Program-made: the position numbers and the translations under genes
Origin: a virus
IMG/VR virus record: IMGVR_UViG_3300007512_002775
Location: 1-64,000 of that record
Direction: 5' to 3' (one strand)
DNA: 64,000 nt
The notes under the pieces: generated by a model
Seen by the model: the letters and a program-made list of their open reading frames with translations, nothing else
What the model was told of the DNA's origin: nothing
The model's database searches: none
Shown here: positions 7,305-64,000 of the stretch, piece after piece
How positions within the stretch are numbered: position 1 is the stretch's first letter
Layout: each line of letters opens with the position of its first letter

Positions 7305-7330
7305 GCATCCCTCGTCCGTCAGACAATACC

Positions 7331-7358
7331 ATTATACGATGCCCTCAAGAAAACTGCA
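7331..7358 (-). promoter_or_regulatory. early promoter TGCAGT-N16-TATAAT
   Basis: variant of the repeated motif. Confidence 0.55.
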
Positions 7359-7401
7359 CGTGGGTACTGTTTTTTGCTTAAAGAATTCATATTTATACAC
7401 C

Positions 7402-25492: not shown

Positions 25493-26521
25493 CTAAAACT
25501 TCAACAATGCATGTGGAGAGCTCTCAGTTTGCGATGCATGCGTCTGTTCAATAAAGCGCGACCTAGCCCTTAGTTCCATTAAGTTGTATGCCCCTGTGTA
25601 AGAAAGGCCACTGCGAACCCCCCACTCTAAATCATGCAATACGTCAGCAACGGGCCCTTTGATCGTTACAGTAGTTGAAACGCCCTCTATAGAACCTATC
25701 TTGCCGCGCCACGCCTTTTGTGCTTCATGAGATGCCATCCCTCTATAGATCTTACGAGGAGCACCGTCATTAGTTCGTAAAATCATTCCGGGAGTCTCAT
25801 CGGTTCCTGCGAGCAATGAACCACACATGATTACATCAGCTCCGGCCGCCAAGGCTTTGACCATATCTCCCGAGTTTTTGATGCCTCCGTCTGCAATGAG
25901 AATGGCGTCACGATCTGATGTTGCACAGTCCAATACACTCTGCAGCGTAGGAATCCCGTGGCCCGTCTGTACTCGAGTAGAGCAGATCGAACCACCGCCG
26001 ACTCCCACTCTAATACTATCCGCTCCCCAATCAGACAAGTCGTTAAAGGCTTCTAACGTGGCTACATTTCCTGCCATCAAATGAACTGATTTGCCAAAAA
26101 TATCACGCAACGTCTTTAGTGCCTTTTTCATCAATGCATGATGCCCGTGAGCAACGTCTAAGCAAAATATTCTACACCCAGCATCATACAGAGCAGTCGC
26201 TCGATCTTCGAAATCGCCTGTAATTCCCACGGCTGCTCCAAACACAGCCCCCGATTGAGCGGTTACAACCTCTTTGACCATAGAAGCCTGTTCTTCAACA
26301 GTATTGTAACGATGGAGAATCCCCAAAGCACCTGCCTTATGCATAGCGATGGCCATCTCTGTGCCTGTCACTGTATCCATGGGTGCCGAAATAATTGGAA
26401 GCCTCAAACGATCCTTTCTCCATCTGGTCAATTCAGTGGACAAATCGATCTGAACTCGAGTTTCAATATTGCTGTACCGCGGCTCTAACAAGACGTCATC
26501 AAAACAAATCGCGCGTCGCAC
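25493..26521 (-). CDS. IMP dehydrogenase / GMP reductase family (no CBS domains)
   Basis: FDDVLL.P, SAPMDTVT, DVAHGH, GNVAT, VGVGGGSICSTR, ADGGI, YRGMAS; GTG start with AGGAGG. Confidence 0.9.
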   Translation of the reverse strand: MRRAICFDDVLLEPRYSNIETRVQIDLSTELTRWRKDRLRLPIISAPMDTVTGTEMAIAMHKAGALGILHRYNTVEEQASMVKEVVTAQSGAVFGAAVGITGDFEDRATALYDAGCRIFCLDVAHGHHALMKKALKTLRDIFGKSVHLMAGNVATLEAFNDLSDWGADSIRVGVGGGSICSTRVQTGHGIPTLQSVLDCATSDRDAILIADGGIKNSGDMVKALAAGADVIMCGSLLAGTDETPGMILRTNDGAPRKIYRGMASHEAQKAWRGKIGSIEGVSTTVTIKGPVADVLHDLEWGVRSGLSYTGAYNLMELRARSRFIEQTHASQTESSPHALLKF

Positions 26522-26589
26522 GTCTCCTCCTTTAAGCATACACTCAACCAAAAATAAAAACTACTAGACTGCTGTATATAGAAGCAGGT

Positions 26590-33785: not shown

Positions 33786-35414
33786 TCATAAAGTTTCAAT
33801 AAGTCCCAAATCAGAGACTGTTTCCTCACTGTAACAGATGGCACACCCTATGAGTAGCACATTACAGGCCACTGAGACCGCGTGTTGTAACGCAGAATGA
33901 ACCACAAGATGCGGATCAATAATCTTAAGGTCAATCATGTTACCAAAGCTATCTTGTGCTGCATCGTATCCCACGCCCTGCTTGTTTCGATGAACCTTTC
34001 TCACAACCATTTCCGGGATTCCTCCGGCGTTCTCTACAATTTGCCTCAAAGGAGCCGAGCATGCCTTGAGCAGCGCCTCATAACCCATCCTATAAGACTC
34101 AGATTCACACTTTTTAACTCGACATTTCGAAGCCGCACAGACTAAAGCAGTGCCTCCACCGGGTTGAATGCCCTCTTTTCTTGCAGCGCGCGCCGAATGG
34201 AGGGCATCGTCTATTCGATCTCGACGCTCCATCATTTCTCCCTCCGTCGCTCCGCCCACCCTGATGATGCCAATACCCTCAGACAACCTCCTCAGTCGTC
34301 GATTCGCTACATCCACCTCAAGTTGAGACGATGAGGGATCTTCTAAAATGGCCTTAATCGATACGATTCTTTCGTCGACTTTTTGGGCATCTCTTTTGTT
34401 TTTAGTTCCTATCAGGACTGTGCCATTTTTATTAATTACAACCTTGTCCGCATAACCAAGAAAATCGCTTACATCTTGACGTTCCATCAAACCGTCATCA
34501 ATCGCTAGCACTTCTGCTCCGCATAAAGCTGCAATGTCTTGAAGCGCTATCGTCCTAGCATTCCCAAACTCAGGAGCTTTAATGGCACAAACACAGAGTG
34601 TCCCCTTCATGCGATTCAATACTAAGGTCTGTAAGGCTTCACTAGCTACATCATTGGCAACAATGAGAAGTGCGCTGTTGGTATTGGCTGCATACTCCAG
34701 TGCTGGAAGGATAGACTTAGCTGTGTTGAGCGTTTGGTTGTAAACCAATATGGCTACTCGCTCCAACTCTGCCAAGCCTTTCGCTTGATCAGTCACAAAG
34801 TATGGACTGAGGAACCCTCTATCTATAACAGCTCCTTCCACTATTTCCAAGGAAGTATCGAATCCTTTCGCTTGTTCTACTGAGATGGCGCCGTCGTCTC
34901 CTACGGCGTCTAGCGCTTCAGCGATCAATTCTCCGATTGTAACTTCTCCATTAGCAGAAATAGTTGCCACACTAATGAGATCATCCCGGCCGTCAACACC
35001 CAACCTCGTTTGGTCTAACGCGCTTAAAACATCTAGCGACGCAGCTTCTATTCCAGCACAGAGCTGCCTAACATCAACATCAGTAAGAAGGAGTCGCGCG
35101 CCCTCGTGCAAGATAGCTTGTGCCAAGACTGTTGCAGTAGTGGTACCATCCCCAGCGACTTCAGCAGATCTTTGAGCTGCCTCCTTTACTAGTTGGGCAC
35201 CCAAGTTCTCGAAGGGATCCAACAGCGATATCGCATTAGCCACAGACACGCCATCCTTAGTGAGGTGCGGAGGTGCCCCAGGCCGAAAAATAGCAACATT
35301 TTTTCCTTTGGGCCCTAAAGTAACTTTGACTGCATTGGCCAAAGTATCAACCCCACGGATAATCTTACTCCTAGCTTCAGAATCAAATTTTACATCGGTT
35401 ACATCGTGAATCAT
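33786..35414 (-). CDS. groEL: GroEL-like chaperonin
   Basis: AVKVTLGPKG, TKDGVSVA, AGDGTTTATVLA, RGFLSPYF, VGGATE, IIDP; no GGM tail. Confidence 0.95.
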   Translation of the reverse strand: MIHDVTDVKFDSEARSKIIRGVDTLANAVKVTLGPKGKNVAIFRPGAPPHLTKDGVSVANAISLLDPFENLGAQLVKEAAQRSAEVAGDGTTTATVLAQAILHEGARLLLTDVDVRQLCAGIEAASLDVLSALDQTRLGVDGRDDLISVATISANGEVTIGELIAEALDAVGDDGAISVEQAKGFDTSLEIVEGAVIDRGFLSPYFVTDQAKGLAELERVAILVYNQTLNTAKSILPALEYAANTNSALLIVANDVASEALQTLVLNRMKGTLCVCAIKAPEFGNARTIALQDIAALCGAEVLAIDDGLMERQDVSDFLGYADKVVINKNGTVLIGTKNKRDAQKVDERIVSIKAILEDPSSSQLEVDVANRRLRRLSEGIGIIRVGGATEGEMMERRDRIDDALHSARAARKEGIQPGGGTALVCAASKCRVKKCESESYRMGYEALLKACSAPLRQIVENAGGIPEMVVRKVHRNKQGVGYDAAQDSFGNMIDLKIIDPHLVVHSALQHAVSVACNVLLIGCAICYSEETVSDLGLIETL

Positions 35415-50498: not shown

Positions 50499-51179
50499 TT
50501 ATGCTCTAAATAATTGACCTACTTTGTCTGCTCGACGGAAGCGCTTTTCAATGTGGGCCCAATTCAGTTCTTTCATCATGGCAAGCACGTACGTCCTACT
50601 ATTATCTAAATAGTCGCGATAATAGGCACCTACGTTCATATCCATCACAATGATCGGAAGAACTCCTATGCCAACATTTTTAGCCTCTTCATCAACAACA
50701 AAATTAATATACCTCTGGAGAAAAACCGAATAACCGGTGATGGCATAGCCGTCTCTAGAAGACATACAGCAAGCGATGAAGTCTCGCTGCCACGCATCAA
50801 ACGTCCCAAAATCTCTCTCCAGCCGGATAAAAGCAATGGAGTCCATGGTGATTTGGCTACTCAGATCGCTAATATTTTCGAAATACATTGCCCTTAAAAA
50901 CGAAGCGTTCATGTTGTATACTTCATCTAACTTCAGAGAACGGTAGTCACTAGATTTATTGTTGGCGTTTTCGCGATCCGCCCCATCTAATTCTGCACTC
51001 ACCTTGTTCAGCGCAGCCACAAATTCCTCAAACTCTTGACGCTGCGCTGTTTTGGTGGCATCGCTCAGTAGATCTGTCTTTAAATCAAATTGTTTGGGTT
51101 CGGTAACGTAAGCTTCCTCTATCGTCTTCCCTATTGTTGAATTGATCGATCTAACAACCTCTCTCTTTAAATCTTTCAT
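50499..51179 (-). CDS. degenerate Fe/Mn superoxide dismutase-fold protein
   Basis: YFENI, ERDFGTFDAW..DF, P.IVMD....AYY.DY, LNW; His ligands substituted. Confidence 0.75.
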   Translation of the reverse strand: MKDLKREVVRSINSTIGKTIEEAYVTEPKQFDLKTDLLSDATKTAQRQEFEEFVAALNKVSAELDGADRENANNKSSDYRSLKLDEVYNMNASFLRAMYFENISDLSSQITMDSIAFIRLERDFGTFDAWQRDFIACCMSSRDGYAITGYSVFLQRYINFVVDEEAKNVGIGVLPIIVMDMNVGAYYRDYLDNSRTYVLAMMKELNWAHIEKRFRRADKVGQLFRA

Positions 51180-51545
51180 CTATTTTACCTCGTAGTCGCT
51201 TTCGAATTCATCTTGATTCACAGCCAATAGTTCATCTTCGCCTAAAGGCGGTTGGCTCGGATCTAGATCACCATCGCCCGGGTCTATGATGTAGAGACCG
51301 TCAGGATCCACTTCATAAAGAACTTTCTCATGTATTCGGACGTCTTGAATGACTTCAGGGTCTTCTGGCGGCGGGTCAAACCTCGGCTCTTCGGGCATCC
51401 GGAGGATTATTTGGATGTCCCCATTCGGCTCTTCGATGACGTTATCGACTGTATACTCGTATTGAGACGCTTTATGGCGTACTTTCAAACCCGGGGAAAT
51501 AATCACATTACCCGCTTCGTCCCTGACGTCTGTTTCACCTAACAT
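51180..51545 (-). CDS. acidic hypothetical protein
   Basis: AAGGAG RBS, TAATG coupling. Confidence 0.6.
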   Translation of the reverse strand: MLGETDVRDEAGNVIISPGLKVRHKASQYEYTVDNVIEEPNGDIQIILRMPEEPRFDPPPEDPEVIQDVRIHEKVLYEVDPDGLYIIDPGDGDLDPSQPPLGEDELLAVNQDEFESDYEVK

Positions 51546-53848
51546 TATTTCTCCTTCAAACCGGCCAACTCGACCCAACGGACTCCTTCCTCAGAGCTTT
51601 CGTGCGTTTCCAGCAACGATCGTTGAGGGGTAGGACCTAGTAGCACTTCAACCAGTCGGCCTCGCTCATAATAAACACTCTCCTGTTGAGTAAACGTACC
51701 AAACGCCGGGGCTTGTGTCGCTGCCCTACCGCGCCTTTTGACGCGTCGAGTTGTACGAGTCTGTTCTTCCGAAGACTCTTGACGCTCGGCTGCAGGTTCT
51801 TTCTTCTTGGCCGGCTTCTTTTCAGCCGCCGGACGGCGACCTTCCGCCCTCTCCTTTCTACGGACTCTGTCGCCCAGAGAATCTGTATTATCTGTAGGCT
51901 TTACTTCGACTCCCACCTTTTTGGCACGATCTATCATGGCTTGCGTAGGCTTGCCAGGCTTTTTACGCTTTTTCTTGGCTTCGCCTGTTTTTTCTTCTGA
52001 ACTGCTGGCCGAAGTGCTAACGTCTTCCTCTTCTATCTCTATTTCGGCGCTCATCTCTACTGCTGCGTCGAGAGCGGCACGGGCATTGACGCCGGCTTCC
52101 TTTGCGACATCTACTGCAGCTTGCATATTGCCATCGGCGATTGCTTGCGTGAAATTAATCGTCTGCTGGCGTGACATTCCTACATCGTCCATGTAACGAT
52201 CGAACTGCCTTTCAGCCGCCGCATCTCTTTTCTCCAAGTAACTCAACAGCGTGCCCAGATTGTCCGCCTCGCCGGCAGCAGCTTGAGCAGCTTGCTTAAC
52301 ATCTTCAGACGGTATACCGGTTATTATCACATCATATTGATTCTGCAGTCGTGTAGCTAAGTCTCTAGCCAAGGTTGCGACTTTATCATCAGCAACACCT
52401 TGATCCTTGATGGACTTTTCCACGTCCTTAAACATGATCGCCTCAGATAATAGCACTCTCTGCAGCGAAGATTGATATACCCAGCCGGCCGTCTTCTTGA
52501 TCTGCTTACGTTCAAACAGGGCGTCCGTCAAGGAATGGTGGTGTACCCACGATTCTTCAGTTACGTCTCCTGATTGGGGCTTCTGGGTTGGGGCTTCGGC
52601 GGGGGGTCCTGGGTCTACTTCTGCTTCTTGCGCTACTTCCTCGGCCTCGTCAGGATCGAAGATGACAATCTTGGATTTGGGGTCATCGTTAATGAGTGCC
52701 GCCAGTTCCGGAGTCATGCCGGCGACATCTTCAGGGGCAGTAACCTTTCTTTCAAGGTCACCGATGGACACCAACTCCATGCCCTTGAGGTCATCTGCAC
52801 TGTCTGTTCTCTGGCCAGGCGTCATCTGTTGGACGGCTGTGGGAGAAGCGGGGACTGTTCCCACGCCGGGTACATTGACTGTTTGAGAAGCTCCGGCTAC
52901 AGTACTGCCACCCGCGACTGCCGTGGCGTCGCCAGTCGCCAAAGCTTGAAGATCTGTGGATATGGCGGTCGCGGCCGCTTGGGCCTGTTGCTTCTCTGCC
53001 TCTGCTTCTGCTCTTTTAGCTTCTAGCTCTTTGGCCTTGTTAATAATCTGTTCGAGAGAAGTGTCCAACAGATCGTTGGCGAACTCCTTAGAAGATAGAG
53101 TTTGGCCCTTGAAAAACGCTGCTACTTTACCCAAATACCCTTCTGGTGCCTTGGGCTCCTTGAAGGAATTCTGCGCAGCTTTTGTTAGTAAGCCAGCGTC
53201 TGGAAACTTAATACCTTTTGCCCATGTCATAAACTTATTCGAGGCTATGTCTCGAATAGGAAAATCTTTGAAAGCTTTCACTGCCTGATCCACGGCTTCT
53301 TCGGGAGATAACGTGGTTCCTTTATCATCAACTTCAATTGTGCCAGTATCCGTTCCTTTCATCCAGAACTCAGCAGCTTCCTCAGCAGCTGCCAAGGGAT
53401 CCTCCGAATACGGCAGCTTCGCCAATTCAGATCCAAAAAGAACTATAGCGTCATAAAAAGAATCTCTGACATTGTTTATGTTGGTGATCGCCGTGGTGAT
53501 CTTTCCAATCTGCTTTGCGGACTCTTGGGGGTCCCCCTTGAGAGCCACCTTGACCAAAGACAGGTTACCAGGTAGTGATTTTTTGAGATTGGCGAGGTAC
53601 TTAGTAGTTCTTTCGAATCCGAGCTCACCGACATCAACGATCAATTCATCGATGGTCTCGCCGGCAGCCTTTGACATCTGATCTAGTTTTTCTAGTTCTT
53701 TTCTATCTATCTTCTCAACGAGAACGCGACCGATAGAACCCTCTAAAAGGCCTGTTTCTACTGCACGCGCATAATCTAACTGAGCCCAGACCTTCCTTGC
53801 TATATTCTCGAGAAAGACCTCAGATTGGTTGGAGTTTATTTTTGGCAT
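51545..53848 (-). CDS. large helical protein (putative virion internal protein)
   Basis: 767 aa; repeated LxE sites; ends RWVELAGLKEK. Confidence 0.65.
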   Translation of the reverse strand: MPKINSNQSEVFLENIARKVWAQLDYARAVETGLLEGSIGRVLVEKIDRKELEKLDQMSKAAGETIDELIVDVGELGFERTTKYLANLKKSLPGNLSLVKVALKGDPQESAKQIGKITTAITNINNVRDSFYDAIVLFGSELAKLPYSEDPLAAAEEAAEFWMKGTDTGTIEVDDKGTTLSPEEAVDQAVKAFKDFPIRDIASNKFMTWAKGIKFPDAGLLTKAAQNSFKEPKAPEGYLGKVAAFFKGQTLSSKEFANDLLDTSLEQIINKAKELEAKRAEAEAEKQQAQAAATAISTDLQALATGDATAVAGGSTVAGASQTVNVPGVGTVPASPTAVQQMTPGQRTDSADDLKGMELVSIGDLERKVTAPEDVAGMTPELAALINDDPKSKIVIFDPDEAEEVAQEAEVDPGPPAEAPTQKPQSGDVTEESWVHHHSLTDALFERKQIKKTAGWVYQSSLQRVLLSEAIMFKDVEKSIKDQGVADDKVATLARDLATRLQNQYDVIITGIPSEDVKQAAQAAAGEADNLGTLLSYLEKRDAAAERQFDRYMDDVGMSRQQTINFTQAIADGNMQAAVDVAKEAGVNARAALDAAVEMSAEIEIEEEDVSTSASSSEEKTGEAKKKRKKPGKPTQAMIDRAKKVGVEVKPTDNTDSLGDRVRRKERAEGRRPAAEKKPAKKKEPAAERQESSEEQTRTTRRVKRRGRAATQAPAFGTFTQQESVYYERGRLVEVLLGPTPQRSLLETHESSEEGVRWVELAGLKEK

Positions 53849-53919: not shown

Positions 53920-54321
53920 TTAGAGTTTCCTCACGCTAACATTTGATGCTTTTAAAATATCAACACTAGACATATCGCGATATTCTTCGCTAAAAACGAC
54001 TTCATCAATTCCTGCGTTAATGATTGCTTTAGCGCACATGCGGCATGGCGAGAGCGTAATATACATGATTTTTCGTTTGGGGTTGTTGTAATCTAACTTG
54101 AGTAAAGCATTGATCTCTGCGTGGATAAACCCGCTCTGGCCAGGCTCGTCAGTTTCAGGCTCGTTAGGACCTCCAGAATAATTTCCATTGTAACCCACTG
54201 CCAATACTTGAGTATTGTCAGCCGCAACTACGATAGCGCCTACTTGAAAACGAGGATCATATGATCGCTGGGAGATGGTGCCAGCTGTCGCCATCCAGAC
54301 TTCGTCCCAATCAGGCCTCAT
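53920..54321 (-). CDS. dCMP deaminase
   Basis: RPDWD, VGA, GYNG, HAEINAL, TLSPCRMCAK. Confidence 0.93.
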   Translation of the reverse strand: MRPDWDEVWMATAGTISQRSYDPRFQVGAIVVAADNTQVLAVGYNGNYSGGPNEPETDEPGQSGFIHAEINALLKLDYNNPKRKIMYITLSPCRMCAKAIINAGIDEVVFSEEYRDMSSVDILKASNVSVRKL

Positions 54322-54323
54322 GG

Positions 54324-55340
54324 CTATGCACCTTTTTCAGAATCGGAGCCGCTAGCAACTTCTTGAACAGAAAGCTTCTTCTTCTCGGCATCGAGAACCA
54401 CATCGACGCCAGCTTCTTCAGCTTTTTTCATCAATTCCTCGATCTCCGGTTGGATCTCCTCGACAGCCTCGTTGACTAGTTCCAAGACTTCTTCGTCGCC
54501 TTCCTCTTCGACGTCGAATAGGTCGTCCACCAGAGCATCTCCCGGCAGGCCAAAGCCAGCAGCCTTTTTGTGGCCGCCGCCACCAAAGCGTTTGGCAATC
54601 TCAGAAACATCGATCCTATCATGGAACGCACGCAAGCTCACCTTGATGTTCCTGTCTTCGTGATCGTAGAACCATATCATCGCAAAATCGCAATCCGGCG
54701 ACAGCCTTGCTCCGATCTCGGACATCCAGTGTGAGGCATTGACCACCATCACGTCCATCCCTTCGAACTTGCGGTGGACGGCCTTCTCACACACCTTTTT
54801 GACCACAGTCTTAGAATAGGCAAGAATGTAAGAACCTCTCTTCACCGCATCATCGAATACCGAGTCGTCTTCGTACTTCTCGAACTCCTCGAACTCAAAG
54901 GGCACCATGTCAAAGGCCGCGGCGAACTCCTTCGAGTAAGGCAGTTCCCACTTCCATAGATCTCGATCCTCGATGTAATCGATGAACTTGGGTGCTTCCT
55001 TGCCAGGGTGAAAGAAGTCCCAAGCCAAACGCGCGCCTGAGTGCTTCATGTCGAAATGTGTATTAGAAATATCGTGAAGCTCTACCATAGCAGACTTGTG
55101 GTGGTCAATGACGATCAGGCCCTCGGCATCTTTTATCATCTGCTTGGTGGTCGCATTATCAAACGAAAAGTCCAAAATTGCTACTGTCTTACCTTTGACG
55201 TCAGGTGGTGGCGTACCGTGCTTGCTGGCGTGGTACTCTGCTCGATTGCCCAATAGCTTCCAAGCCGCGTACGCAGCACCGAAGCCATCAGTACAGTCTT
55301 TATGATAAATTAGTAAGTCTATTGAACTGGGTTCTAGCAT
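54324..55340 (-). CDS. DHH/DHHA1 phosphoesterase
   Basis: YH..C.DG, LDFS, IDHHK, DRDLW, SLR, GGGGH..AAG. Confidence 0.9.
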   Translation of the reverse strand: MLEPSSIDLLIYHKDCTDGFGAAYAAWKLLGNRAEYHASKHGTPPPDVKGKTVAILDFSFDNATTKQMIKDAEGLIVIDHHKSAMVELHDISNTHFDMKHSGARLAWDFFHPGKEAPKFIDYIEDRDLWKWELPYSKEFAAAFDMVPFEFEEFEKYEDDSVFDDAVKRGSYILAYSKTVVKKVCEKAVHRKFEGMDVMVVNASHWMSEIGARLSPDCDFAMIWFYDHEDRNIKVSLRAFHDRIDVSEIAKRFGGGGHKKAAGFGLPGDALVDDLFDVEEEGDEEVLELVNEAVEEIQPEIEELMKKAEEAGVDVVLDAEKKKLSVQEVASGSDSEKGA

Positions 55341-55897
55341 TAGTCACCGTCATACAGATCATTTACAAATGGTGTCTCCGACCAAGCTCTCGGTTCATAC
55401 ATATCAGCTCCACCAACCTCGATCTCTGCAAGATTGTCGATTTTCCTCACTGTATAGTACGCATTATCACCAGTTTTTACACATACTGCGGGACAAACTT
55501 CAATCTTAGTGGCCCAAGGGAGCATCTCCTTTACTTCGTGGAAAACGTTTCCTGATGCCGAAATCTGGATTGAGGAAGCAACGATCGTCTTGCCCTGCTT
55601 AAACAAGTCGATGAGGGCCGTCGCGCAGTCGTCTATCATGAATGCTTCATCGATGCCGATCACATCATAACCGATACTGTGCGCCACGATGTCCTCTCCG
55701 TTGTTAACGTTGATCGCCGGAAACCTGAGGCCAGCATGAGTACAGATCTCGCCTTCCTCATAACGATCATCCATCTTCGGCTTGAAGGCCACAACCCGCT
55801 TGTTTTGATAAGAACAGCGCTCGAGAACCGAAAGCATCCTCGTCGTCTTAGAACCAAACATCGGGCCCGTGAACACTATGAATTCTGGATTTTTCAC
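55340..55897 (-). CDS. tdk: thymidine kinase
   Basis: GPMFGSKTT, KP..D.RY, IDEA, VGG..MY. Confidence 0.92.
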   Translation of the reverse strand: MKNPEFIVFTGPMFGSKTTRMLSVLERCSYQNKRVVAFKPKMDDRYEEGEICTHAGLRFPAINVNNGEDIVAHSIGYDVIGIDEAFMIDDCATALIDLFKQGKTIVASSIQISASGNVFHEVKEMLPWATKIEVCPAVCVKTGDNAYYTVRKIDNLAEIEVGGADMYEPRAWSETPFVNDLYDGD

Positions 55898-55984: not shown

Positions 55985-56013
55985 ATATAAAATGAGGGCA
56001 CCGCGGTGCCCTC
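55985..56013 (-). terminator. intrinsic terminator
   Basis: perfect 20-bp palindrome GAGGGCACCGCGGTGCCCTC (55994-56013) followed on the minus strand by ATTTTATATT; ends the modification cluster. Confidence 0.7.
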
Positions 56014-56074: not shown

Positions 56075-56992
56075 TTAGTCCCTCACCTCCCCCCATGCTC
56101 TATAGCTATCGATTGCACCTTCGCTGTAATCGAACTCTGGCGTCGGATCTAATTCGCCAGCAACGTTCCAAAACAAAGCTCCCGGACGGCCATGCTCCAA
56201 CATGTACTTCCATCCCTTGCCGTCATAAGTAGACACCGTATCAAAAGGTGGCAAGTTTTGAGGTCGCTCTTTAGCCGTGAACGGTCGTGGTTCAGACCAA
56301 ATCTTCGTTCGGCCGAGCTCTCCAGCTTTCATGTTTCTCGCGACGCACACGCCACGCATGTCAGCATTCGGAAAACCAACCTGTAGCCCGCGAGTCAAAA
56401 CTCCGGTCGAGACCACGGTCCATACTTCCTTCGGCTCAGGAAAGCCAGATTCTAAGATGTTTTGACAGATTCGAGTAAACCCAGCGATGGTACCAGGGTG
56501 GTTTAGACCGAACGGCAGAAACGCTGCACTATTTTCTTTCGCCCATGCTGCTCCCATTCTATTGAGGTTGGGCATCGCAGCAATACGGCGCCACTTCACT
56601 TGCAGATCAACACCCAACTTCTCAGCCAACTCGATGGCAGCTGCTTGGTGATTTGTGATCCTTTTGCATGCTGGTGCAAACAAGACTACTTTCTTGTTAT
56701 ACAGATTCGCCAGAGAAACGATGGCGCACGGGGCATGTCCCACGCGTGGCATACTATATACCAATGTTTCTTCGGGCACTTGAGTTACCAACCACTCTCC
56801 AGCTCGAGCTTTCGTACCACCGTGACCAAGGAGATCCTCCCTCGCCACTTGAAACCCATTCACCTCTTCAATTATTACCGGGGGCAGTTTTGATACAAAC
56901 CCCTCTGTCATTTTCAGATAGGTCTCTCTATCAGGATACTCATTATTGATCTCCTTGTTGATGCCATCTATTACGTGATTGTTATGTGCCAT
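56075..56992 (-). CDS. PLP-dependent fold-type II enzyme (DNA-hypermodification-associated)
   Basis: REDLL.HGGTKAR (PLP lysine), LPFG, VVSTGV, T..TYDGK, LFWN. Confidence 0.8.
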   Translation of the reverse strand: MAHNNHVIDGINKEINNEYPDRETYLKMTEGFVSKLPPVIIEEVNGFQVAREDLLGHGGTKARAGEWLVTQVPEETLVYSMPRVGHAPCAIVSLANLYNKKVVLFAPACKRITNHQAAAIELAEKLGVDLQVKWRRIAAMPNLNRMGAAWAKENSAAFLPFGLNHPGTIAGFTRICQNILESGFPEPKEVWTVVSTGVLTRGLQVGFPNADMRGVCVARNMKAGELGRTKIWSEPRPFTAKERPQNLPPFDTVSTYDGKGWKYMLEHGRPGALFWNVAGELDPTPEFDYSEGAIDSYRAWGEVRD

Positions 56993-57083
56993 AATCAGTT
57001 CCTCCTTTTGTATGACATTGCATTATGCAACAATTATATTTTACCGATGTAAAGAGGTTCGTGAAGCCCTTAAAGTGATTTTT

Positions 57084-58133
57084 TTACCAAACCCATTGAG
57101 GGGTGCCTAACATCCATTTCTGTCGCCCTTTAGGGTGATCAGTGATCAGTGATGCATTCCATATCTTGGTTCGATCTAGATGACCGTACGTCTTCTCACG
57201 ATTGTCAGGAATGTAGTTCTCGACGTATCGGATGTAATCACACATGACATCCTCCAGGTCCTTCGGGTGACCACCGGTGCGATGCTGGGCTTCTTCCATC
57301 ACAAGATCATAGTAGTCTGCCTTAGAAACCCTCCCCACTTTCTCAGCAAAGAGATCCATGGCTTCCTGGGCATTCTTGCCATAGTACATGTGACTGCCTT
57401 CTTCTACGAGCTCGGGGTAGTAATCCGCGAGATCGGCCGCGATCGCCGTGTATTGAAAGTGGAACCTCTTCATGCCGTGCTCTCGGTTCCACTCGCACAT
57501 GAAGTCTACGATCTCTCGAATCGTCGCCTTTCCCCTGCAGCTTGTGGCTCTAAAGATAAACTTCCATACGTCATCCACCAGATGATGAGCATGCTCCCCA
57601 AAATAGACTTTGCCTCCGGTCCGATAACCGTTTCTAGGCTTGGGAAAAGCAGGGATCTGATTGCCGATCGAAGTGTACATGACACCATCGTAACTGCGGA
57701 TCCAATCCGTCATCTCCTCTACTGTCTTTAGCTTTGCGATCTCTGGAATTATCGTGTTACGGTAACCGTGATCAGCCTCAAAGGATGCGCCAGAGCCGGT
57801 AATTCGATGCACGAGAAAAACGAACAGCCACTCTCGATGCGTCCAGGCCACGTGCAGCCCTTCATAAGTGTGGTTCCGTGCCCGATGATCAGCGTCCCAC
57901 TTGTAGTACTTGGGAGCTCGACCAGCATACCACAGATCTTGCAGCATGTTTTGGAAACCAGCGTGCTTCCTTTCTACTGTGTCGTAGATGGTGACGTTTT
58001 CCATCAGATCATCACCACACGAACCAATGTAAGACATGCCGCCTAGGTTGCACTCCTTCTGGACTAGCTTCGCTTTGGCAGTATATTGCAGGAAATCATC
58101 AAAGTATTTGTTAAATTTAATCCTGTCTGACAC
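57084..58133 (-). CDS. amino acid:DNA transferase / aGPT-Pplase-like protein
   Basis: C-terminal F.FQ....AADL...G.NA..A...DLEDVMCDY.RY pattern like aGPT-Pplase clade 1; gene context. Confidence 0.65.
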   Translation of the reverse strand: MSDRIKFNKYFDDFLQYTAKAKLVQKECNLGGMSYIGSCGDDLMENVTIYDTVERKHAGFQNMLQDLWYAGRAPKYYKWDADHRARNHTYEGLHVAWTHREWLFVFLVHRITGSGASFEADHGYRNTIIPEIAKLKTVEEMTDWIRSYDGVMYTSIGNQIPAFPKPRNGYRTGGKVYFGEHAHHLVDDVWKFIFRATSCRGKATIREIVDFMCEWNREHGMKRFHFQYTAIAADLADYYPELVEEGSHMYYGKNAQEAMDLFAEKVGRVSKADYYDLVMEEAQHRTGGHPKDLEDVMCDYIRYVENYIPDNREKTYGHLDRTKIWNASLITDHPKGRQKWMLGTPQWVW

Positions 58134-59141
58134 TCAAATGCTCCATAGATAGTGTTCTGGGGAAATGTGCACGGAACGTGGTTTTTCCATGACACCAAAA
58201 TCTAGTTCGCTAAATTCGTTGATGAAGTACCTCGGCCATTCGATCACTTCAAACCCCAAAAAGGTGCATCGGTGTCGAAGTGCGTCGTTGAATGCCTTCT
58301 TGGCTTCGTTACGCTCTCTCCATGAACCCCAAAAAGGCTGGCCCTTATAGTAACCCGTCTTCGGTAATCGACGACTCTCATTTTCAATCGGTAGCGCAGC
58401 AACGACCTCGACCGTTTCCAATTCATAAGCTTCTTTGCATCGAAGAAGCTCTGCTAGATATCGGTCAGCCAAATCCACCGCCATCTGCCTCTGTTCAGAA
58501 GCACTCTTTGCTAGGCGGCAGACGTGGTGCCTGATGTCGATGTTACCAAAGTAGGTTCGAATAGAGAGTAGCTCACTAGGGTTTGAGCCGTGGGTATATT
58601 CTTCTATCCAATCCGAAAAACCTAAGTTCAGTGCGCCGTTCAGGGTCTGGCCATCCAGTCTGGTCAAATAAGCATCGGGACGCCAAGCTGCTAGAGCATG
58701 AGAGTCTCCTAACACCAAGCTTTTCTGATCTTGATCATGCTGCCTAACTGTCTTTGCGGAAGCACAAACCTTGGAAATCTTAGCAAAATCCAGCTGCCTG
58801 TAAGCAGGAGAAGAGTGCGGCCGCACACGGCAATGGAGTCGCTGGCCATAATCAGGGCAATCAATATCTAAGGAGAAGAGTTGCCCAGAAAAGTTCTGGA
58901 TCTGCTTTGCCTTAGCGGCTAAAGCGTCCCATGACTTATGGTCCTTAAGGAATACATTGACGCCCTTGGATTTCTCCTTAAACTCCATGCCATGTTCGAA
59001 GTAGACGATCTCTTCATTTGACCAGTCTCTTTTAAAAGCTAGTTCAGCTCCTAAGCATTTTCCCCACATGCGAGCCCAACCCGTACGATGACTCGTGGTA
59101 CGATTTGCATGAGTGGTAATAGGGCTAACGATTACAGACAT
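58134..59141 (-). CDS. SGNH/GDSL-like hydrolase or acyltransferase
   Basis: VLGDSH, G.T..G, FGNIDIRHH, C-terminal SVH. Confidence 0.55.
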   Translation of the reverse strand: MSVIVSPITTHANRTTSHRTGWARMWGKCLGAELAFKRDWSNEEIVYFEHGMEFKEKSKGVNVFLKDHKSWDALAAKAKQIQNFSGQLFSLDIDCPDYGQRLHCRVRPHSSPAYRQLDFAKISKVCASAKTVRQHDQDQKSLVLGDSHALAAWRPDAYLTRLDGQTLNGALNLGFSDWIEEYTHGSNPSELLSIRTYFGNIDIRHHVCRLAKSASEQRQMAVDLADRYLAELLRCKEAYELETVEVVAALPIENESRRLPKTGYYKGQPFWGSWRERNEAKKAFNDALRHRCTFLGFEVIEWPRYFINEFSELDFGVMEKPRSVHISPEHYLWSI

Positions 59142-59149
59142 CCTTACTC

Positions 59150-59587
59150 CTAAAATAGACCAGTGGAACCAAAGCCGCCAGGACCACGGATGGTCGCCTG
59201 CTCGAAGAGTTCCGATTCCTCGACCACCTCTATTGTATCATATAACACGGGAAGTAGCACCAATTGGACGAGTTTTTCTCCGGGCGAGATCATAGTCGTC
59301 TTGTCACCGACGTTGACGACGTGCAAATGGATCTCCCCTTGGTAATCCTCATCGACGACACACGCACCGACGAACAGTGACTTTTTGAGAGCAATGCCGC
59401 TCTTGTTAAAAGCGATCAATGCATACCCTTCTGGTACATTAGCTTTTATACCACTCGGTATGAACACTTTTTCGCCGACACCGATGCAAGCACGATTAAA
59501 ATCCTCAGGGACATAAAAGTCCAGCCCTGCTGATTGTGGTGTGCCCCTAGTCGGTGTCTTTACTTTCCGGACCTTCGTGATCCTCAT
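59150..59587 (-). CDS. dut: dUTPase (trimeric)
   Basis: SAGLDF, NKSG, VVDEDYQGEI, QLV, RG.GGFGSTG. Confidence 0.93.
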   Translation of the reverse strand: MRITKVRKVKTPTRGTPQSAGLDFYVPEDFNRACIGVGEKVFIPSGIKANVPEGYALIAFNKSGIALKKSLFVGACVVDEDYQGEIHLHVVNVGDKTTMISPGEKLVQLVLLPVLYDTIEVVEESELFEQATIRGPGGFGSTGLF

Positions 59588-59852
59588 CGGCCTTCTCCTT
59601 GATGTAATTGTCCAATGCACCAATGTAAGCGCATGCATCCAGTAAATTGTCTTCTCTATAAGAGTACGAATGTCTAGAAAGCTTGAGGGCGACCAATGCA
59701 GCGTACATGTCTGCAGCCGTAAAATCCTTACCAGTCATGCCACGAGCAATGCTTGCTGCCCTCTCCATGCCCTCCGAAAACGGGCCGTACTGCCTGGCTT
59801 TCTCTTCGGACCGCTTATTGACGATCTCGTTTGCTCTATCTAGTATGTTCAA
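59547..59852 (-). CDS. all-alpha nucleotide pyrophosphohydrolase-like protein (DUF6378-like)
   Basis: IL..A.EIV..R...YG.F......LKLSR......D..LD...Y. Confidence 0.65.
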   Translation of the reverse strand: MNILDRANEIVNKRSEEKARQYGPFSEGMERAASIARGMTGKDFTAADMYAALVALKLSRHSYSYREDNLLDACAYIGALDNYIKEKADEDHEGPESKDTD

Positions 59853-60678
59853 AGAACAGCTCCTTTTTTCTGCATGCAGCAAAGTTGTTTATGTCACTTT
59901 TTTCCATGTCTTCTTTCGGCAGAAACTTCCTTTCTTTTAGCAGCTTCTCCCAAGTCCAGCCAGCCTTTAATTCGAACCGGCGAGTGTTTGATGGGGGACT
60001 AACCGGTTCTTCAGTTAAAACCTTTGTCGCCATCTCAAAATGCCGTTCATACAGATGCAAGCTGCCAGCGTGGTGATGGTAGGAGCCTAGGCTGACGCCT
60101 GCCCCTCTCTCGTTCAATTCGTTGAGCATCAGTTGTTGGAAGAGCGCAAATGTGAAAACATCGTTACAAAAACCAAAGATGATGTCGTTGGATCGCATCG
60201 CAACACCTAGATGTAGGCTGTTATTACGAATGAAAAATTGCAGATATTGGGTACACGGATAATCTAGCTTGTTCTTCCCTTTGTGGTGCGGCTGATTTAT
60301 GACAATCGTCGCGCGACGTGTATCGTTGTCGCCCAACATCTCGTCGATAGCCCATTCCCACTGAGCAGAAAGATATACGCCGTAATTGGACTCAACTTCT
60401 CCGTCTTCGTCTTGGATCTGCTCCCATATCTTGGCCAGTTTGCCGATGTTATTGACAGCAGGATTTTTCGATAAATACCAGAGCCATTCTGCGATCGCAT
60501 AAGTGGAAGAAAACTTCCTGGCCTTAGAGTGAATCATCAGCTCTGTGGGATCTGCGATCTCAAACTGCTGGAATAGAAGCTCTTTCTGCTTACTTCCTCG
60601 GCTGTTCACTTCTTCGCCAAAATAATTGACTTTGTGCAGCAGCGATTTAAAAGCCGAGTCTAGCGAATCAAACTTCAT
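59836..60678 (-). CDS. thymidylate-synthase-fold enzyme, dCMP hydroxymethylase type
   Basis: SNYG, TRRA, PCT..Q..IR, MRSNDIIFGFCND (Asp at the Asn177-equivalent site, as in T4 gp42), SLHLYERHF; start re-called. Confidence 0.85.
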   Translation of the reverse strand: MKFDSLDSAFKSLLHKVNYFGEEVNSRGSKQKELLFQQFEIADPTELMIHSKARKFSSTYAIAEWLWYLSKNPAVNNIGKLAKIWEQIQDEDGEVESNYGVYLSAQWEWAIDEMLGDNDTRRATIVINQPHHKGKNKLDYPCTQYLQFFIRNNSLHLGVAMRSNDIIFGFCNDVFTFALFQQLMLNELNERGAGVSLGSYHHHAGSLHLYERHFEMATKVLTEEPVSPPSNTRRFELKAGWTWEKLLKERKFLPKEDMEKSDINNFAACRKKELFFEHTR

Positions 60679-60694: not shown

Positions 60695-63600
60695 CTAGTT
60701 GTTGCCAAGTTCAAGTACCTTTCTCCAATTTGTGAAAAACCCAAAGTCTCCATTCTGCAACTGTATTGCCAGGACCGAGTAAGGGGAGAGCGTCGCATCT
60801 TTAGGGGTGTTCCAACAGAATACCCTGTGCTTCTTACCTGAGTTGCCCAAGACTTCTATGAGCAAATAAGGCTTGCCGTTTTTGGTCTTCTTCGAAATAG
60901 CCTTCAGGCAAAGCACCCAATAAATGTCTTCGCCTGAGAACTCGTCGATCGACTTGACGCCCTTCTCTTGCAACTTCTCCAAAAATTCTGCCGGGAGAAG
61001 CATCTCAACGTTCACTGTGCCTAGCAGGTTCATGCTGTTACTTGCCACTTCGGACATGGTCCACTCGCTGGTATCGCCACCTTCCAGTAGCAACTCCTTC
61101 ATGAAATTCATGCCTCGAAAGGGATCCTTCTTGGTGCTCTTCTTGAGTTTATCCCAGTGATCGATGACCACATCGTGAAAATGCTTGTAAGAATCAAAGT
61201 GGGCTTTTAGATCCATGGAATCGAAAGCGCGTAGCTGGATAAGGACCGACATGGCGCGCTTATTGAGCTTCGAGTGCTTCCACTTACCATCCTCACTCCA
61301 AAGCAAATCTTCGACGTTCTTATACGGTCTGTTTTGCATGATCTCGTAGACTGCAGCATTTCCTATGCCTTTGCAAGAAGAAAAGGAAGGCACGAAAGCC
61401 TTGTCTTCCGTACACACCCACGTCGTGTCTGATTTATTAATGTCAACACGAGCTATTTTGTACCCTAACGCCTTAACTTCAGAGAGGGCCTTAGCCAACT
61501 TCTTTGGACTTCCTGACGCAGCCTCGAGGTAAGCAGTAAGCCATTCTTCTTCGTAATGAGTAAGCATCCAAGCACAGTAGTATGAGATAAAAGCATAAGA
61601 CACTGCATGCGATGCATTGAATCCGTAGCCGGCAAAATAGAGGATCTTCTCATAGAGCTCTTGTGCAATGCCCTTGTTGATGCCATTTTCTATAGCTCCG
61701 CTAATGAACCTCTCCTGGAGCGCGCGGGCATTTACTACGTTTTCATCGCCGCCCGAGCTCGGCTTCATCATCTTGCGAATCTTGTTGAGTTCTATCTTTG
61801 GAATGCCGGCAACTACGTTGCATAAAGCCATCGCCTGCTCTTGGAAGACGATGCAACCATAGCTCGGCTCCAGCACCTCTTTGATCAGTTCATGCCCGTA
61901 TTCCACAGACTCTGGGTTCTGCTTAGCGTTGATGTAAGTTCTATCCACCTTGGCACTCAAGGGGCCTGGACGATATATCGATGTCAACGTTGCAATATCG
62001 ATGATGGATTCTGGCTTGGCTTTTTGGAAGAGCTTTTGCGCGCCTTTCTGTGTGCATTGGAAGACTCCGGCAAATCGGCCCTCGTGATACACGTTCCTAT
62101 AGACTTCTGGATCTTTCAGATCCATCTTCTTCGGATCCATGTGCTCTTGGTACCATGCCTTGACGTCTTCGAAAGTAGGATTCTGATTGCCTTCCTTCTT
62201 GAGGATGCGCCCGATGGCGCCTTCGATGATGCGCAGTGTCTCCAATCCTAGCAGATCGAACTTGACCCACCCAAAGGTCTCTAAGTGCTTCGCCGTCATG
62301 CCTTCGATCCATGGCGTCTGCACTTCGCCCTTCGTGACGATGAGCGGCATCCGTTCAGCGATCCTCTCTGATACGATGACTCCACCAGCATGACGCCCCA
62401 AACTCTTGTTCTGCTTGAAGAGAACGTTGATCGGCTCGAGAATATCCGGGTACTTCTCTAGGAAGTCACGCGTGCGCTCAGAATACCGTAGCGCCTCCTC
62501 GAGAGTGATGTCAAAGCTGACGTCATCTTCAGGCATGGCTCGACGGCCTCGGGCGACGTCCTTCTCCAGAGTAGACAACGCAATGTTGACTTCCTTGAAT
62601 TCCACCCCATAAAACCGAGAAACGTCTTTGATCAGCGACTTTAGCTTGAAGGTGTTGTAATTGGAAATGGGCACCACATTTTCAGTGCCGAACTCGTCTC
62701 GAAGTTGATCGATGAGCTTGTCTCTGTCAGAGACATCCGTATCAATGTCTGGGTATTCAGTTCGAAGCGGGTCCAAGAAGCGCTCAAAGAGCAGGCCGTA
62801 CTCGAGCGGATCTATGTTAGTGATACCGAGCAAGTAATTGACGAGCGAGCCGGCTCCAGATCCACGCCCGGGCCCGACGATCTGCTTCTGCCATGCCACG
62901 TCGATGATCTTTTTCATCGTCAAAAAATACTCAGAGAACTTCTTTTCCTTGATGACCTTCAATTCAGAAACAGTACGTGCTACATATGCAGGCTCTGTGT
63001 GGAGGCCTCTTTCTACCAACGCAGATTTGGCCATCTCCATGAGTGCCTGATCTGCCGTCTTCTCTTTAGGGATGACGTAAGACGGCAACTTCATAGAACA
63101 ATCAGGGTGAATTTCATCGATCTCATTGTGTGCAATGTCATGCGTTCTCTCAATCGCACTCCGCACGATGTCATCACAATAGAACTCCATGCCCTCAGTA
63201 GTGGTACGATACGACTCCCAGACTCCCTTTGCATTCTTAGGATAAAGTTCGCACTTGAGATCTTCTTCCGATTGAGGCAGCGCACTCGGATCGTAATCTT
63301 TATAGTTGAGCCAACCGAGCTTTTTGTACAGCTCCCTCTCTTTCCAATGTTCAGGACGAGCGTAATGACTATCGCACGTAACGATCAATCGATCGTCTGT
63401 GTTAGTCCTTTGAGCGAACTCCATGAGAGCCCGATTTACTAGATGCTGGGCACTGAGCTTGTTGAATTGGAGCTCCAAGCAAACATTGTCCCGGCCGACG
63501 GCATCTGTGAGCTGATCGTATACGTTCCCGATGCCGAGCATGATCTTCTCCATCAGGCTTCCATCGTCCAACAGTTCTGGCTTCAATTCGTCAAATTCGA

Positions 63601-64000
63601 CTTGCTGCAGATACCTGAAAACCTCATATGCCATCGGGCCGCCTAGACATGCAGTCGTAATGAGAAGGTGGCCACCCTGGGCTGCCTCCTTGAGCATCTT
63701 GTAGTCGACACGAGGAAAACGGTAGAACCCCTCCAGGTATCCCTTTGACACGAGCCCAAATAGTCTCTCGAGACCGACTGATGTCTTAGGCAGGACGACC
63801 ATGTGATGACGCCTCTTGATGGGATCATAGAACTTTCCCGACTTCGTCTCTTCTTCGTTTTCTATTGTGAGGCTTGCATCTTCGATACCGACGTCCAAGA
63901 TCTCATCGTTGGCATCGGTCACCGCTTCGACACACGTTGCCAGCTTCTCCCTCTCCTCAGACAACTTTTTGATCGCTGCAGCGTCCCCTCGCTTTTGGGC
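60695..64000 (-). CDS. dnaE: DNA polymerase III alpha subunit (5' end outside window)
   Basis: PHP remnants (TACLGG, TCDSHY), GRGSGAGSL, FERFL, PDIDTD, HAGG, KFDLLGL, FQEQ, GYGFNASHA; frame open to window end. Confidence 0.96.
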   Translation of the reverse strand, partial: AQKRGDAAAIKKLSEEREKLATCVEAVTDANDEILDVGIEDASLTIENEEETKSGKFYDPIKRRHHMVVLPKTSVGLERLFGLVSKGYLEGFYRFPRVDYKMLKEAAQGGHLLITTACLGGPMAYEVFRYLQQVEFDELKPELLDDGSLMEKIMLGIGNVYDQLTDAVGRDNVCLELQFNKLSAQHLVNRALMEFAQRTNTDDRLIVTCDSHYARPEHWKERELYKKLGWLNYKDYDPSALPQSEEDLKCELYPKNAKGVWESYRTTTEGMEFYCDDIVRSAIERTHDIAHNEIDEIHPDCSMKLPSYVIPKEKTADQALMEMAKSALVERGLHTEPAYVARTVSELKVIKEKKFSEYFLTMKKIIDVAWQKQIVGPGRGSGAGSLVNYLLGITNIDPLEYGLLFERFLDPLRTEYPDIDTDVSDRDKLIDQLRDEFGTENVVPISNYNTFKLKSLIKDVSRFYGVEFKEVNIALSTLEKDVARGRRAMPEDDVSFDITLEEALRYSERTRDFLEKYPDILEPINVLFKQNKSLGRHAGGVIVSERIAERMPLIVTKGEVQTPWIEGMTAKHLETFGWVKFDLLGLETLRIIEGAIGRILKKEGNQNPTFEDVKAWYQEHMDPKKMDLKDPEVYRNVYHEGRFAGVFQCTQKGAQKLFQKAKPESIIDIATLTSIYRPGPLSAKVDRTYINAKQNPESVEYGHELIKEVLEPSYGCIVFQEQAMALCNVVAGIPKIELNKIRKMMKPSSGGDENVVNARALQERFISGAIENGINKGIAQELYEKILYFAGYGFNASHAVSYAFISYYCAWMLTHYEEEWLTAYLEAASGSPKKLAKALSEVKALGYKIARVDINKSDTTWVCTEDKAFVPSFSSCKGIGNAAVYEIMQNRPYKNVEDLLWSEDGKWKHSKLNKRAMSVLIQLRAFDSMDLKAHFDSYKHFHDVVIDHWDKLKKSTKKDPFRGMNFMKELLLEGGDTSEWTMSEVASNSMNLLGTVNVEMLLPAEFLEKLQEKGVKSIDEFSGEDIYWVLCLKAISKKTKNGKPYLLIEVLGNSGKKHRVFCWNTPKDATLSPYSVLAIQLQNGDFGFFTNWRKVLELGNN

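Follow-up and report, generated by a model that had tools for sequence, protein, structure and literature searches.

A candidate kinase-free module for hypermodification of 5-hydroxymethylcytosine in the DNA of a large uncultured marine phage

The window analysed here is a 64,000-nt stretch of viral DNA, corresponding to the first 64 kb of the 74,947-nt IMG/VR virus record IMGVR_UViG_3300007512_002775; since its CheckV completeness is 28%, the record represents part of the genome of a large uncultured marine phage. Nearly the same sequence is found in marine and seawater metagenomes from at least two studies, and no nucleotide-level match of the region to any cultured phage was found. Nearly all genes of the record lie on the minus strand, including the operon that is the subject of this report. 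This follows the gene of a DnaE-type replicative polymerase and encodes, among others, an enzyme of the thymidylate synthase (TS) fold, an SGNH protein, a protein resembling the amino acid:DNA transferases (AADT) and a pyridoxal phosphate (PLP) enzyme. A preliminary description, made from the sequence alone, had recognised six co-oriented genes after dnaE and a terminator closing them, and both are found where it had placed them. In the direction of transcription, the locus comprises:

60695..63964, minus strand: DnaE-type (Pol III alpha) replicative polymerase, directly upstream and given as context only; the open reading frame (ORF) runs past the window to about 64306 on the contig
59836..60678 (alternative ATG at 60798), minus strand: TS-fold enzyme, predicted dCMP hydroxymethylase; Pfam PF00303 Thymidylat_synt, 4e-20
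59547..59882, minus strand: DUF6378 protein; Pfam DUF6378, 2.9e-10
59150..59638, minus strand: trimeric-type dUTPase; Pfam dUTPase, 2.1e-23; phrog_135, 7e-37
58134..59141, minus strand: two-domain SGNH protein, 335 aa; phrog_13881, 3e-50; SGNH fold by predicted structure
57084..58133, minus strand: AADT-like (aGPT-Pplase-type) protein of the helix-hairpin-helix (HhH) fold, 349 aa; fold by predicted structure
56075..56992, minus strand: PLP fold-type II enzyme, 305 aa; phrog_7093, 2.2e-37; homology to M6 gp52
55994..56013, minus strand: intrinsic terminator; 8-bp stem with 6 GC pairs and a 4-nt loop, then ATTTTATATT

The dnaE product matches phage genes annotated as DnaE-like DNA polymerase III alpha (tblastn, about 30% identity, E 5e-105). 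The start of the TS-fold gene at ATG 60678 lies 17 nt past the dnaE stop and agrees with the starts of homologues, and the ORF beginning at 60798 overlaps dnaE. The GTG start of the AADT-like gene directly abuts the stop codon of the SGNH gene and, about 60 nt past the stop of the PLP gene, a strong hairpin, GAGGGCACCGCGGTGCCCTC, followed by a T-run, closes the operon (56013-55994). The dUTPase serves dUMP supply and the exclusion of dUTP from DNA; a dCTPase activity is also possible. The product of 59547-59882 had been labelled pyrophosphohydrolase-like, and this label was not confirmed: no MazG or PRA-PH match was obtained, the protein matching DUF6378 only. Its assignment as a MazG-type pyrophosphatase also found no support in hhalign comparison with the MazG-like genes of related loci (probability 0.4%) or in a search that gave no PDB match. 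Its Atlas neighbours are DUF6378 proteins without exception, and among the 80 related loci considered below the gene is kept alongside the operon only in L002 (78%) and L035 (52%).

In a phmmer comparison with PDB sequences, the TS-fold enzyme matched T4 dCMP hydroxymethylase (1e-21) and the CMP hydroxymethylase MilA (4e-21), and thymidylate synthase only at 1.5e-12. The enzyme was aligned with T4 gp42, with the dUMP hydroxymethylases of SPO1, M6, ViI and PhiW-14 and with E. coli ThyA, and 14 active-site positions were compared (58, 80, 94, 143, 146, 147, 165, 166, 167, 169, 173, 177, 207 and 209, in E. coli numbering). At these positions the window enzyme reads EWYDCTMRSDGDHY and is the same as T4 gp42 in 14 of 14, including L143D, C146, D169 and N177D; its catalytic Cys (E. 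coli C146) is aligned within the PC motif. The motif MRSNDIIFGFCND, quoted in the preliminary description, is present exactly as given there, and the Asp that it had noted at the N177 site is confirmed, this residue being D in the window enzyme and in T4 gp42 and N in the SPO1, M6, ViI and PhiW-14 enzymes and in ThyA. It has been reported that N177D leads to the use of dCMP as substrate, that an acidic residue at L143, by which water is admitted, leads to a hydroxymethyl and not a methyl product, and that D169N is the mark of newly found 5-hydroxy-dCMP synthases (PMC13326640, 2026). The window enzyme has D143, D169 and D177, and therefore, at the level of its sequence, it carries the signature of a 5-hydroxymethyl-dCMP synthase, not the dUMP, dTMP or 5-hydroxy-dCMP one; the same signature is found in 46 of the 47 TS homologues linked to the module described below.

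Two further analyses that the preliminary description had proposed, a TS phylogeny and a search of the rest of the contig for thyA or thyX, bear on the same question. According to a maximum-likelihood tree, the window enzyme and its closest relative, the L002 homologue, are together sister (99/91) to the gp42 clade, outside the clade proper, and stand apart from ThyA and from the dUMP hydroxymethylases; long branches, such as the 2.55 branch of the gp42 clade, call for caution. A ThyX is encoded on the same contig at 66929-67636 (7e-49), so that dTMP can be made without the TS-fold enzyme. The TS homologues of four related loci (L005, L006, L049 and L075) have Tyr-Asp in place of Asn-Asp before the specificity Asp and, despite Asp177, group with the dUMP hydroxymethylases in the tree (99/96); this placement reflects either an independent change to dCMP as substrate or long-branch attraction.

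The 349-aa product of 57084-58133 had been described as AADT-like, and a structural approach was followed for it. It has 264 metagenomic relatives, and a 38-sequence alignment was used to obtain an AF2 model with a pLDDT of 92. The top match of this model in an exhaustive VIA structure search was 8z2m_A, the glycine:DNA transferase gp46 of PaMx11 (Z 9.9, root-mean-square deviation 4.1, 208 aligned residues), followed by the queuine salvage enzyme DUF2419 (Z 9.0) and then by HhH DNA glycosylases, including 8-oxoG glycosylases (Z 8); all of the top 17 matches have folds of the HhH-glycosylase superfamily. A similar list of neighbours is given for gp46 itself in the paper on its structure (PMC11472151). 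The best match in BFVD was A0A6J5L8T5, named in UniProt ‘Amino acid:DNA transferase domain-containing protein’ (E 1e-25, TM 0.89, 40% identity), with aGPT-Pplase1 and ‘5-hmdU DNA kinase helical domain’ proteins among the further matches. Foldseek against the PDB was uninformative (all E >0.5), the fold surfacing solely with VIA and BFVD; profiles of the AADT-like and SGNH families retrieved nothing useful from the PDB, and the AADT-like gene had neither a nucleotide nor a tblastn match in 50,697 phage records.

The most conserved stretch of the AADT-like family, L-E294-D-V-M-C298-D-Y, has an invariant E294 and a C298 present in 37 of 38 rows, and its counterpart in M6 gp51 is V-E243-T-V-L-C247-K-W. 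The equivalence of E294 and C298 to Glu243 and Cys247 of gp46 was drawn from the aligned ranges 12-309 and 8-258; in gp46 the two residues sit around the flipped base. Mutation of either the Cys or the Glu of this Glu-x3-Cys motif abolishes the activity of M6 gp51 and of ViI gp247 (PMC8989533). Thus, with gp46 as the nearest solved structure, an AADT-domain protein as the best BFVD match and the Glu-x3-Cys motif kept, the earlier assignment is upheld: by its model, the 349-aa protein is AADT-like and has the catalytic dyad, in a family beyond the reach of existing sequence models. It is predicted to be a nucleophile:DNA transferase acting at the C5-CH2 of a modified cytosine.

The adjacent SGNH protein was modelled with a pLDDT of 91 as an N-terminal Rossmann-like domain (residues 1-132) followed by an SGNH/GDSL domain (residues 133-335). 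The latter matched 6xpg in Foldseek (E 2.4e-5, probability 1.00) and 2hsj in VIA (Z 14.1, root-mean-square deviation 2.8, 170 aligned residues), with 73 chains at Z ≥8, in agreement with the SGNH-like label first given to this gene. The invariant residues of the family are G145-D146-S147-H148, D202, H205, H206, E319 and H325, the canonical block III GxND and block V DxxH being replaced by GNIDIRHH and by E319...H325. Structural neighbours are mostly esterases, and the SGNH-fold O-acetyltransferase PatB is also among them. For the N-terminal part, an Atlas search with residues 1-135 gave no usable match; the family profile aligned by hhalign with the N-domain of the T4 beta-glucosyltransferase (BGT) over 48 columns around an ‘NFFGG’ motif, which the window protein has in degenerate form (probability 33%, E 4.6e-4).

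Natural fusion proteins speak for a coupling of this protein to the AADT-like enzyme. All seven of the longer AADT-like relatives (769-796 aa) consist of the SGNH protein followed by the AADT-like protein; they share 67-86% mutual identity and come from several sources, one being on a 229-kb contig. In three further relatives, the fusion partner of the SGNH protein is Pfam HMUDK_hel, the helical domain normally found with the 5-hydroxymethyldeoxyuridine (5-hmdU) DNA kinase. Since it is fused both to the AADT-like protein and to HMUDK_hel, the SGNH protein holds, in domain architectures, the place that the kinase has in the thymine systems; it is proposed to be partner and activator of the AADT-like enzyme, and the fusions strengthen this proposal. 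One of the three HMUDK_hel fusions, the metagenomic P0124 (979 aa), is a triple fusion of an FkbM-type methyltransferase, an HMUDK helical domain and the SGNH protein, and hints that some variants of the pathway may add a methylation step.

The last gene of the operon has a faint Pfam PALP match (E 0.029) and a weak match to cysteine synthase (E 0.02). Comparison of its family profile with M6 gp52 by hhalign gave a probability of 96.4% and an E value of 1.3e-9 over 221 columns, and the invariant K61, in a G-T-K-x-R motif, aligns with K36 of gp52, which is the PLP-binding lysine of that enzyme (PMC8989533). The PLP fold-II identity proposed for this protein is thus substantiated, as a divergent member and a homologue of the DNA-adduct decarboxylase M6 gp52. 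Both gp52 and ViI gp226 decarboxylate amino acids already present on DNA bases and require a free alpha-amine (PMC8989533); by homology, the window enzyme is predicted to decarboxylate an appended amino acid.

A pattern scan of IMG/VR revealed at least 552 contigs encoding an AADT-like relative, and gene neighbourhoods up to 10 kb from the AADT-like gene were counted in the 80 best loci. An SGNH gene occurs in 69 of these loci, a PLP gene in 67 and a TS homologue in 50, with shuffled gene orders: SGNH-AADT-PLP, as in the window, AADT-PLP-SGNH, SGNH-PLP-AADT and others. This co-occurrence across many gene orders indicates that the grouping is more than chance. Most module loci sit among T4-like replication genes (UvsX, gp45, gp44-like), usually beside a gp42-type TS; a dCMP deaminase is found in 25 of the 80 loci, and a thymidine kinase and a DHH protein accompany the module in just 1-2 of them. 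A gene of about 335 codons, here called c4 (e.g., L009:11139-12128, between the AADT-like and PLP genes), occurs in 38 of the 80 loci and is absent from the record of the window phage; it has no family match, and its weak hhalign similarity to the AADT-like family (probability 34%, 132 columns) suggests that it may be a second helical paralogue. In L009 (9592-10005) and 23 other loci, many of them T4-like, a 137-aa protein with a weak match to the UDG superfamily (E 5.7e-4) is encoded by a gene lying between those of the TS homologue and of the AADT-like protein; the window has no such gene.

The known 5-hmdU DNA kinases, M6 gp54 and ViI gp67, match phrog_800 at 2e-39 and 2e-67, respectively. 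In the 75-kb record no phrog_800 match was found, and tblastn with both kinases was negative; in relatives, including a 99%-complete one, only the Walker-A (P-loop) stretch of the phrog_800 profile, its positions 21-64, was matched, at ≤16 bits, in long ORFs. The absence of an hmU-kinase-like gene from the cluster, as first described, can therefore be extended to the 5-HMUDK family on the whole contig, with the caveat that a canonical thymidine kinase, not of the 5-HMUDK family, is encoded just past the terminator. This gene opens the next transcription unit, which contains nucleotide-supply genes outside the conserved core:

53920..55897, minus strand: next transcription unit past the terminator
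55340-55897, minus strand: thymidine kinase; Pfam TK, 3.5e-30
54324-55340, minus strand: DHH/DHHA1 phosphoesterase; Pfam DHHA1, 3e-10
53920-54321, minus strand: dCMP deaminase; Pfam dCMP_cyt_deam_1, 1.5e-22

The sole non-replicative P-loop protein of the window is a Zeta-toxin-like protein (7255-8364, plus strand; GGPGSGKS; Pfam Zeta_toxin 4.4e-8; phrog_12810). Its gene sits on the little-used plus strand beside those of an N6/N4 DNA methylase (6e-53) and of a large HNH endonuclease (8561-9286 and 9988-11385, minus strand). Considered as a hidden DNA kinase, it was rejected as a part of the module: it lies 50 kb off, on the opposite strand, does not belong to phrog_800 and is missing from module-bearing relatives. 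No significant tblastn match to the T4 BGT was found in the 75-kb record.

All the computational checks proposed in the preliminary description turned out in favour of its interpretation. We consider it fairly probable that the operon provides for a kinase-free, post-replicative hypermodification of 5-hydroxymethylcytosine (5-hmC) in phage DNA. In the proposed pathway, the TS-fold enzyme, as its signature suggests, would convert dCMP and methylene-tetrahydrofolate to 5-hydroxymethyl-dCMP (hm-dCMP), which would be phosphorylated by kinases, and 5-hmC would then be put into DNA by the DnaE-type polymerase; ThyX, the dUTPase and the dCMP deaminase would keep dTTP supplied, so that thymine stays canonical. 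The SGNH and AADT-like proteins would then act as a unit on DNA. The base would be flipped by the AADT-like enzyme and attacked at C6 by C298, aided by E294; the substituent on the C5-CH2 would depart, leaving an exocyclic methylene to which a small-molecule nucleophile, most likely an amino acid, would add. In this scheme the SGNH domain most likely replaces the 5-hmdU DNA kinase, and would make the hydroxyl a leaving group by O-acylating it, by way of an acyl-enzyme at Ser147. Lastly, judging from its homology to M6 gp52 and ViI gp226, the PLP enzyme would engage the adduct's free alpha-amine as a Schiff base and remove CO2, giving a positively charged amine side chain. A radical-SAM isomerase is not present, and therefore the amino acid is probably linked through its side chain, as is serine in ViI; the likely product type would be something like 5-(2-aminoethoxy)methylcytosine, and its purpose would be to shield phage DNA from host nucleases. 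A bolder version of this proposal, which we put forward as a tentative and rather doubtful possibility, is that the SGNH protein would O-acylate a DNA base, as the first enzyme known to do so, forming a 5-hmC ester and not a phosphate, that the Cys/Glu transferase would swap the ester for an amino acid, and that decarboxylation by the PLP enzyme would yield a new natural base, e.g. 5-(2-aminoethoxy)methylcytosine, in hundreds of marine and freshwater phage lineages.

Several points weigh against the proposed pathway. The identity of the modified base and of the nucleophile, as well as the reaction of the SGNH protein, is inferred; most SGNH enzymes are hydrolases, and an acyl donor for the reaction is not evident. 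The AADT-like protein has no Pfam, PHROG or NCBIfam match, Pfam remaining empty even at E up to 10, and hhalign of its family with M6 gp51 is not significant (probability 1.2%); in addition, the Z of 9.9 for gp46 barely exceeds those of DUF2419 (9.0) and of the 8-oxoG glycosylases (8), and such Z values can be generic for helical proteins. No dNMP kinase for hm-dCMP was found by tblastn of T4 gp1 in the 75-kb record, and the nearby dCMP deaminase could in principle turn hm-dCMP into hm-dUMP. As the record covers 28% of the genome, a kinase or a glycosyltransferase could be encoded in the remainder.

These points leave room for other explanations. One retains 5-hmC in DNA as the target and dispenses with the activated leaving group: Cys-C6 catalysis, with acid help from E294, would eliminate water, and the SGNH protein would act elsewhere, in trimming or transferring acyl groups on the adduct, in providing the nucleophile from an ester donor, or in delivering or holding DNA through its N-terminal domain. 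DNA C5-methyltransferases provide a chemical precedent, as they can replace the 5-hmC hydroxyl by thiols with no activation beforehand; the module is without any kinase, and most structural neighbours of the SGNH domain are esterases, not transferases. However, PatB, an O-acetyltransferase of the SGNH fold, is among these neighbours, and the fusions of the SGNH protein to HMUDK_hel and, N-terminally, to the AADT-like protein (seven) fit an upstream activation at least as well, and we regard a direct substitution as unlikely. It appears improbable that the modified base is of the thymine type (5-hmU), as in M6 and ViI, with the TS homologue using dUMP or the dCMP deaminase making hm-dUMP. Such a target would be in line with the characterised AADT and gp52-type enzymes, all of which act on 5-hmU derivatives (PMC8989533), and with the dCMP deaminase, which is next to the TS homologue in 25 of the 80 loci and, here, two genes past the terminator. 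The gp42-identical signature, with Asp177 where SPO1, M6, ViI and PhiW-14 have Asn177, speaks for dCMP instead; the phage has its own ThyX and dUTPase, which fit a deaminase feeding normal dTMP synthesis, and no 5-HMUDK was found.

It is also conceivable, if quite improbable, that the last three proteins of the operon act on free nucleotides or metabolites and not on DNA, as an HhH N-glycosidase, an esterase and a PLP beta-replacement enzyme of a salvage or small-molecule route. The DUF2419 match near that of gp46, the weak cysteine synthase match of the PLP family and the nucleotide-pool enzymes encoded nearby would be explained in this way; such a role sits poorly with the retained catalytic Glu-x3-Cys of the AADT, with a significant relative of the PLP family, gp52, that acts on DNA, with the fusion of the SGNH protein to HMUDK_hel, an accessory domain of a DNA kinase, and with the tight association of the module with gp42-type enzymes within replication-gene blocks. 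Finally, the TS homologue might make another C5-modified dCMP, either 5-methyl-dCMP, as in XP12-type phages, or 5-hydroxy-dCMP, as in RB69 and DLP3. Asp177 shows a preference for dCMP only, and TS homologues with Asp177 that make 5-hydroxy-dCMP are known (PMC13326640), but the window enzyme and 46 of the 47 module-linked homologues have Asp at position 169, where 5-hydroxy-dCMP synthases carry a diagnostic Asn, and also at position 143, where a bulky hydrophobic residue goes with methyl products; 5-methylcytosine and 5-hydroxycytosine, moreover, have no C5-CH2-X leaving group for AADT-type chemistry, making this explanation extremely improbable.

The pathway proposed here, hypermodification of 5-hmC, combines features of two known systems. 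Thymidine hypermodification, as found in M6, PaMx11, ViI, PhiW-14 and SP10, makes use of a dUMP hydroxymethylase, a 5-hmdU DNA kinase, an AADT/aGPT-Pplase2 and a PLP decarboxylase of the gp52/gp226 type. The window operon shares with it a TS-fold hydroxymethylase, an HhH enzyme with Glu-x3-Cys, a gp52-type PLP enzyme with an aligned lysine and the clustering beside replication genes; it differs in the signature of the hydroxymethylase, which is that for dCMP (gp42) and not for dUMP, in having a two-domain SGNH protein, fused to the same helical domains, in place of the 5-HMUDK P-loop kinase, in an AADT-like protein too divergent for Pfam and PHROG models, and in lacking a radical-SAM, FAD or acetyltransferase tailoring gene. 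The 5-hmC pathway of the T-even phages comprises gp42, the dCTPase gp56, the dNMP kinase gp1 and alpha- and beta-glucosyltransferases. Here the similarity lies in the active site identical to that of gp42, in a modification that would be built on 5-hmC after replication, and in the fact that most module-bearing relatives are T4-like. Unlike the T-even phages, the window phage has decoration enzymes of the amino-acid type, with no glucosyltransferase detectable on the fragment, and replicates with DnaE, DnaB and RecA and no T4 replisome; the available 28% of its genome yielded no homologue of gp56 or gp1.

At the level of single enzymes, PaMx11 gp46 (PUGT, the 5-phosphomethyl-dU glycinyltransferase; PDB 8z2m/8z2n) and the AADT-like protein have in common a two-helix-bundle HhH-like architecture, with E294 and C298 on the C-terminal helix matching Glu243 and Cys247. 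The two share 9% sequence identity, the window protein is about 60 residues longer, and substrate base and leaving group presumably differ; the glycine-binding residues of gp46, Trp146, Lys150 and Asp24, could not be mapped onto the window protein. The SGNH protein, when compared with PatB, sialate O-acetylesterase, PAF acetylhydrolase and TesA, has the same fold (Z 11-14), the Gly-Asp-Ser of block I with the invariant Ser147, and a conserved C-terminal His; unlike these enzymes, it has an extra N-terminal Rossmann-like domain, a GDSH motif and GNIDIRHH for block III, and it has no DxxH block V.

Several other genes of the record deserve mention. Directly downstream of the dCMP deaminase, a 767-aa ORF (51545-53848, minus strand) has no Pfam, PHROG or NCBIfam match. 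Just upstream of dnaE, at 64856-66107 of the contig, an Fpg/Nei-type glycosylase (Fapy_DNA_glyco 6e-19, with H2TH) is encoded beside a 148-aa HhH-GPD protein (1.4e-12); in a phage that probably replaces its cytosine, these two base-excision enzymes may act on host or unmodified DNA. A second dUTPase-fold protein, at 70820-71356 of the contig, has a dCTP-deaminase-like signal (DCD 6e-7; phrog ‘dCTP deaminase’ 4e-5) and, as this resemblance suggests, could deplete dCTP. Near this gene and thyX are genes for ClpP, a class-II-like ribonucleotide reductase, DnaB, FEN and RecA. Auxiliary genes unusual for a phage are found on the minus strand at 2512-3348, 13671-14312, 18998-19855, 25493-26551, 33786-35414 and 50499-51179; this set includes a biopterin-dependent aromatic amino acid hydroxylase (1.4e-71), an AhpC/TSA peroxiredoxin, a phosphomannomutase, an enzyme of the IMPDH/GMP-reductase family (1.6e-101), GroEL (3.8e-132) and a protein with an Fe/Mn superoxide dismutase C-domain.

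To our knowledge, the characterised amino-acid-type DNA hypermodifications are all on thymine and all begin with a DNA kinase, the known cytosine hypermodifications are either sugars or amides on carboxymethylcytosine, and no member of the SGNH fold is known to act on DNA. A literature search retrieved no paper on an amino-acid-type modification of hydroxymethylcytosine or on an SGNH enzyme in DNA hypermodification, in agreement with the preliminary description, whose author knew of no characterised pathway with this combination. The window indicates that the module extends beyond T4-like phages, as it is found, in a minimal three-gene form, in a large marine phage with DnaE, ThyX and GroEL; it further adds the gp42 signature, complete when judged by the criteria of 2026, together with the Glu-x3-Cys motif and the fusions. 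That gp42-type hydroxymethylation is linked to AADT and PLP chemistry with no kinase involved, in a module present on at least 552 contigs, implies a natural cytosine derivative not yet described, a new mode of activating a DNA base and a new DNA-acting branch of the SGNH enzymes. The enzymes would also serve as tools for the labelling of 5-hmC, and bases of this kind alter the response of phage DNA to restriction enzymes, CRISPR nucleases and sequencing chemistry.

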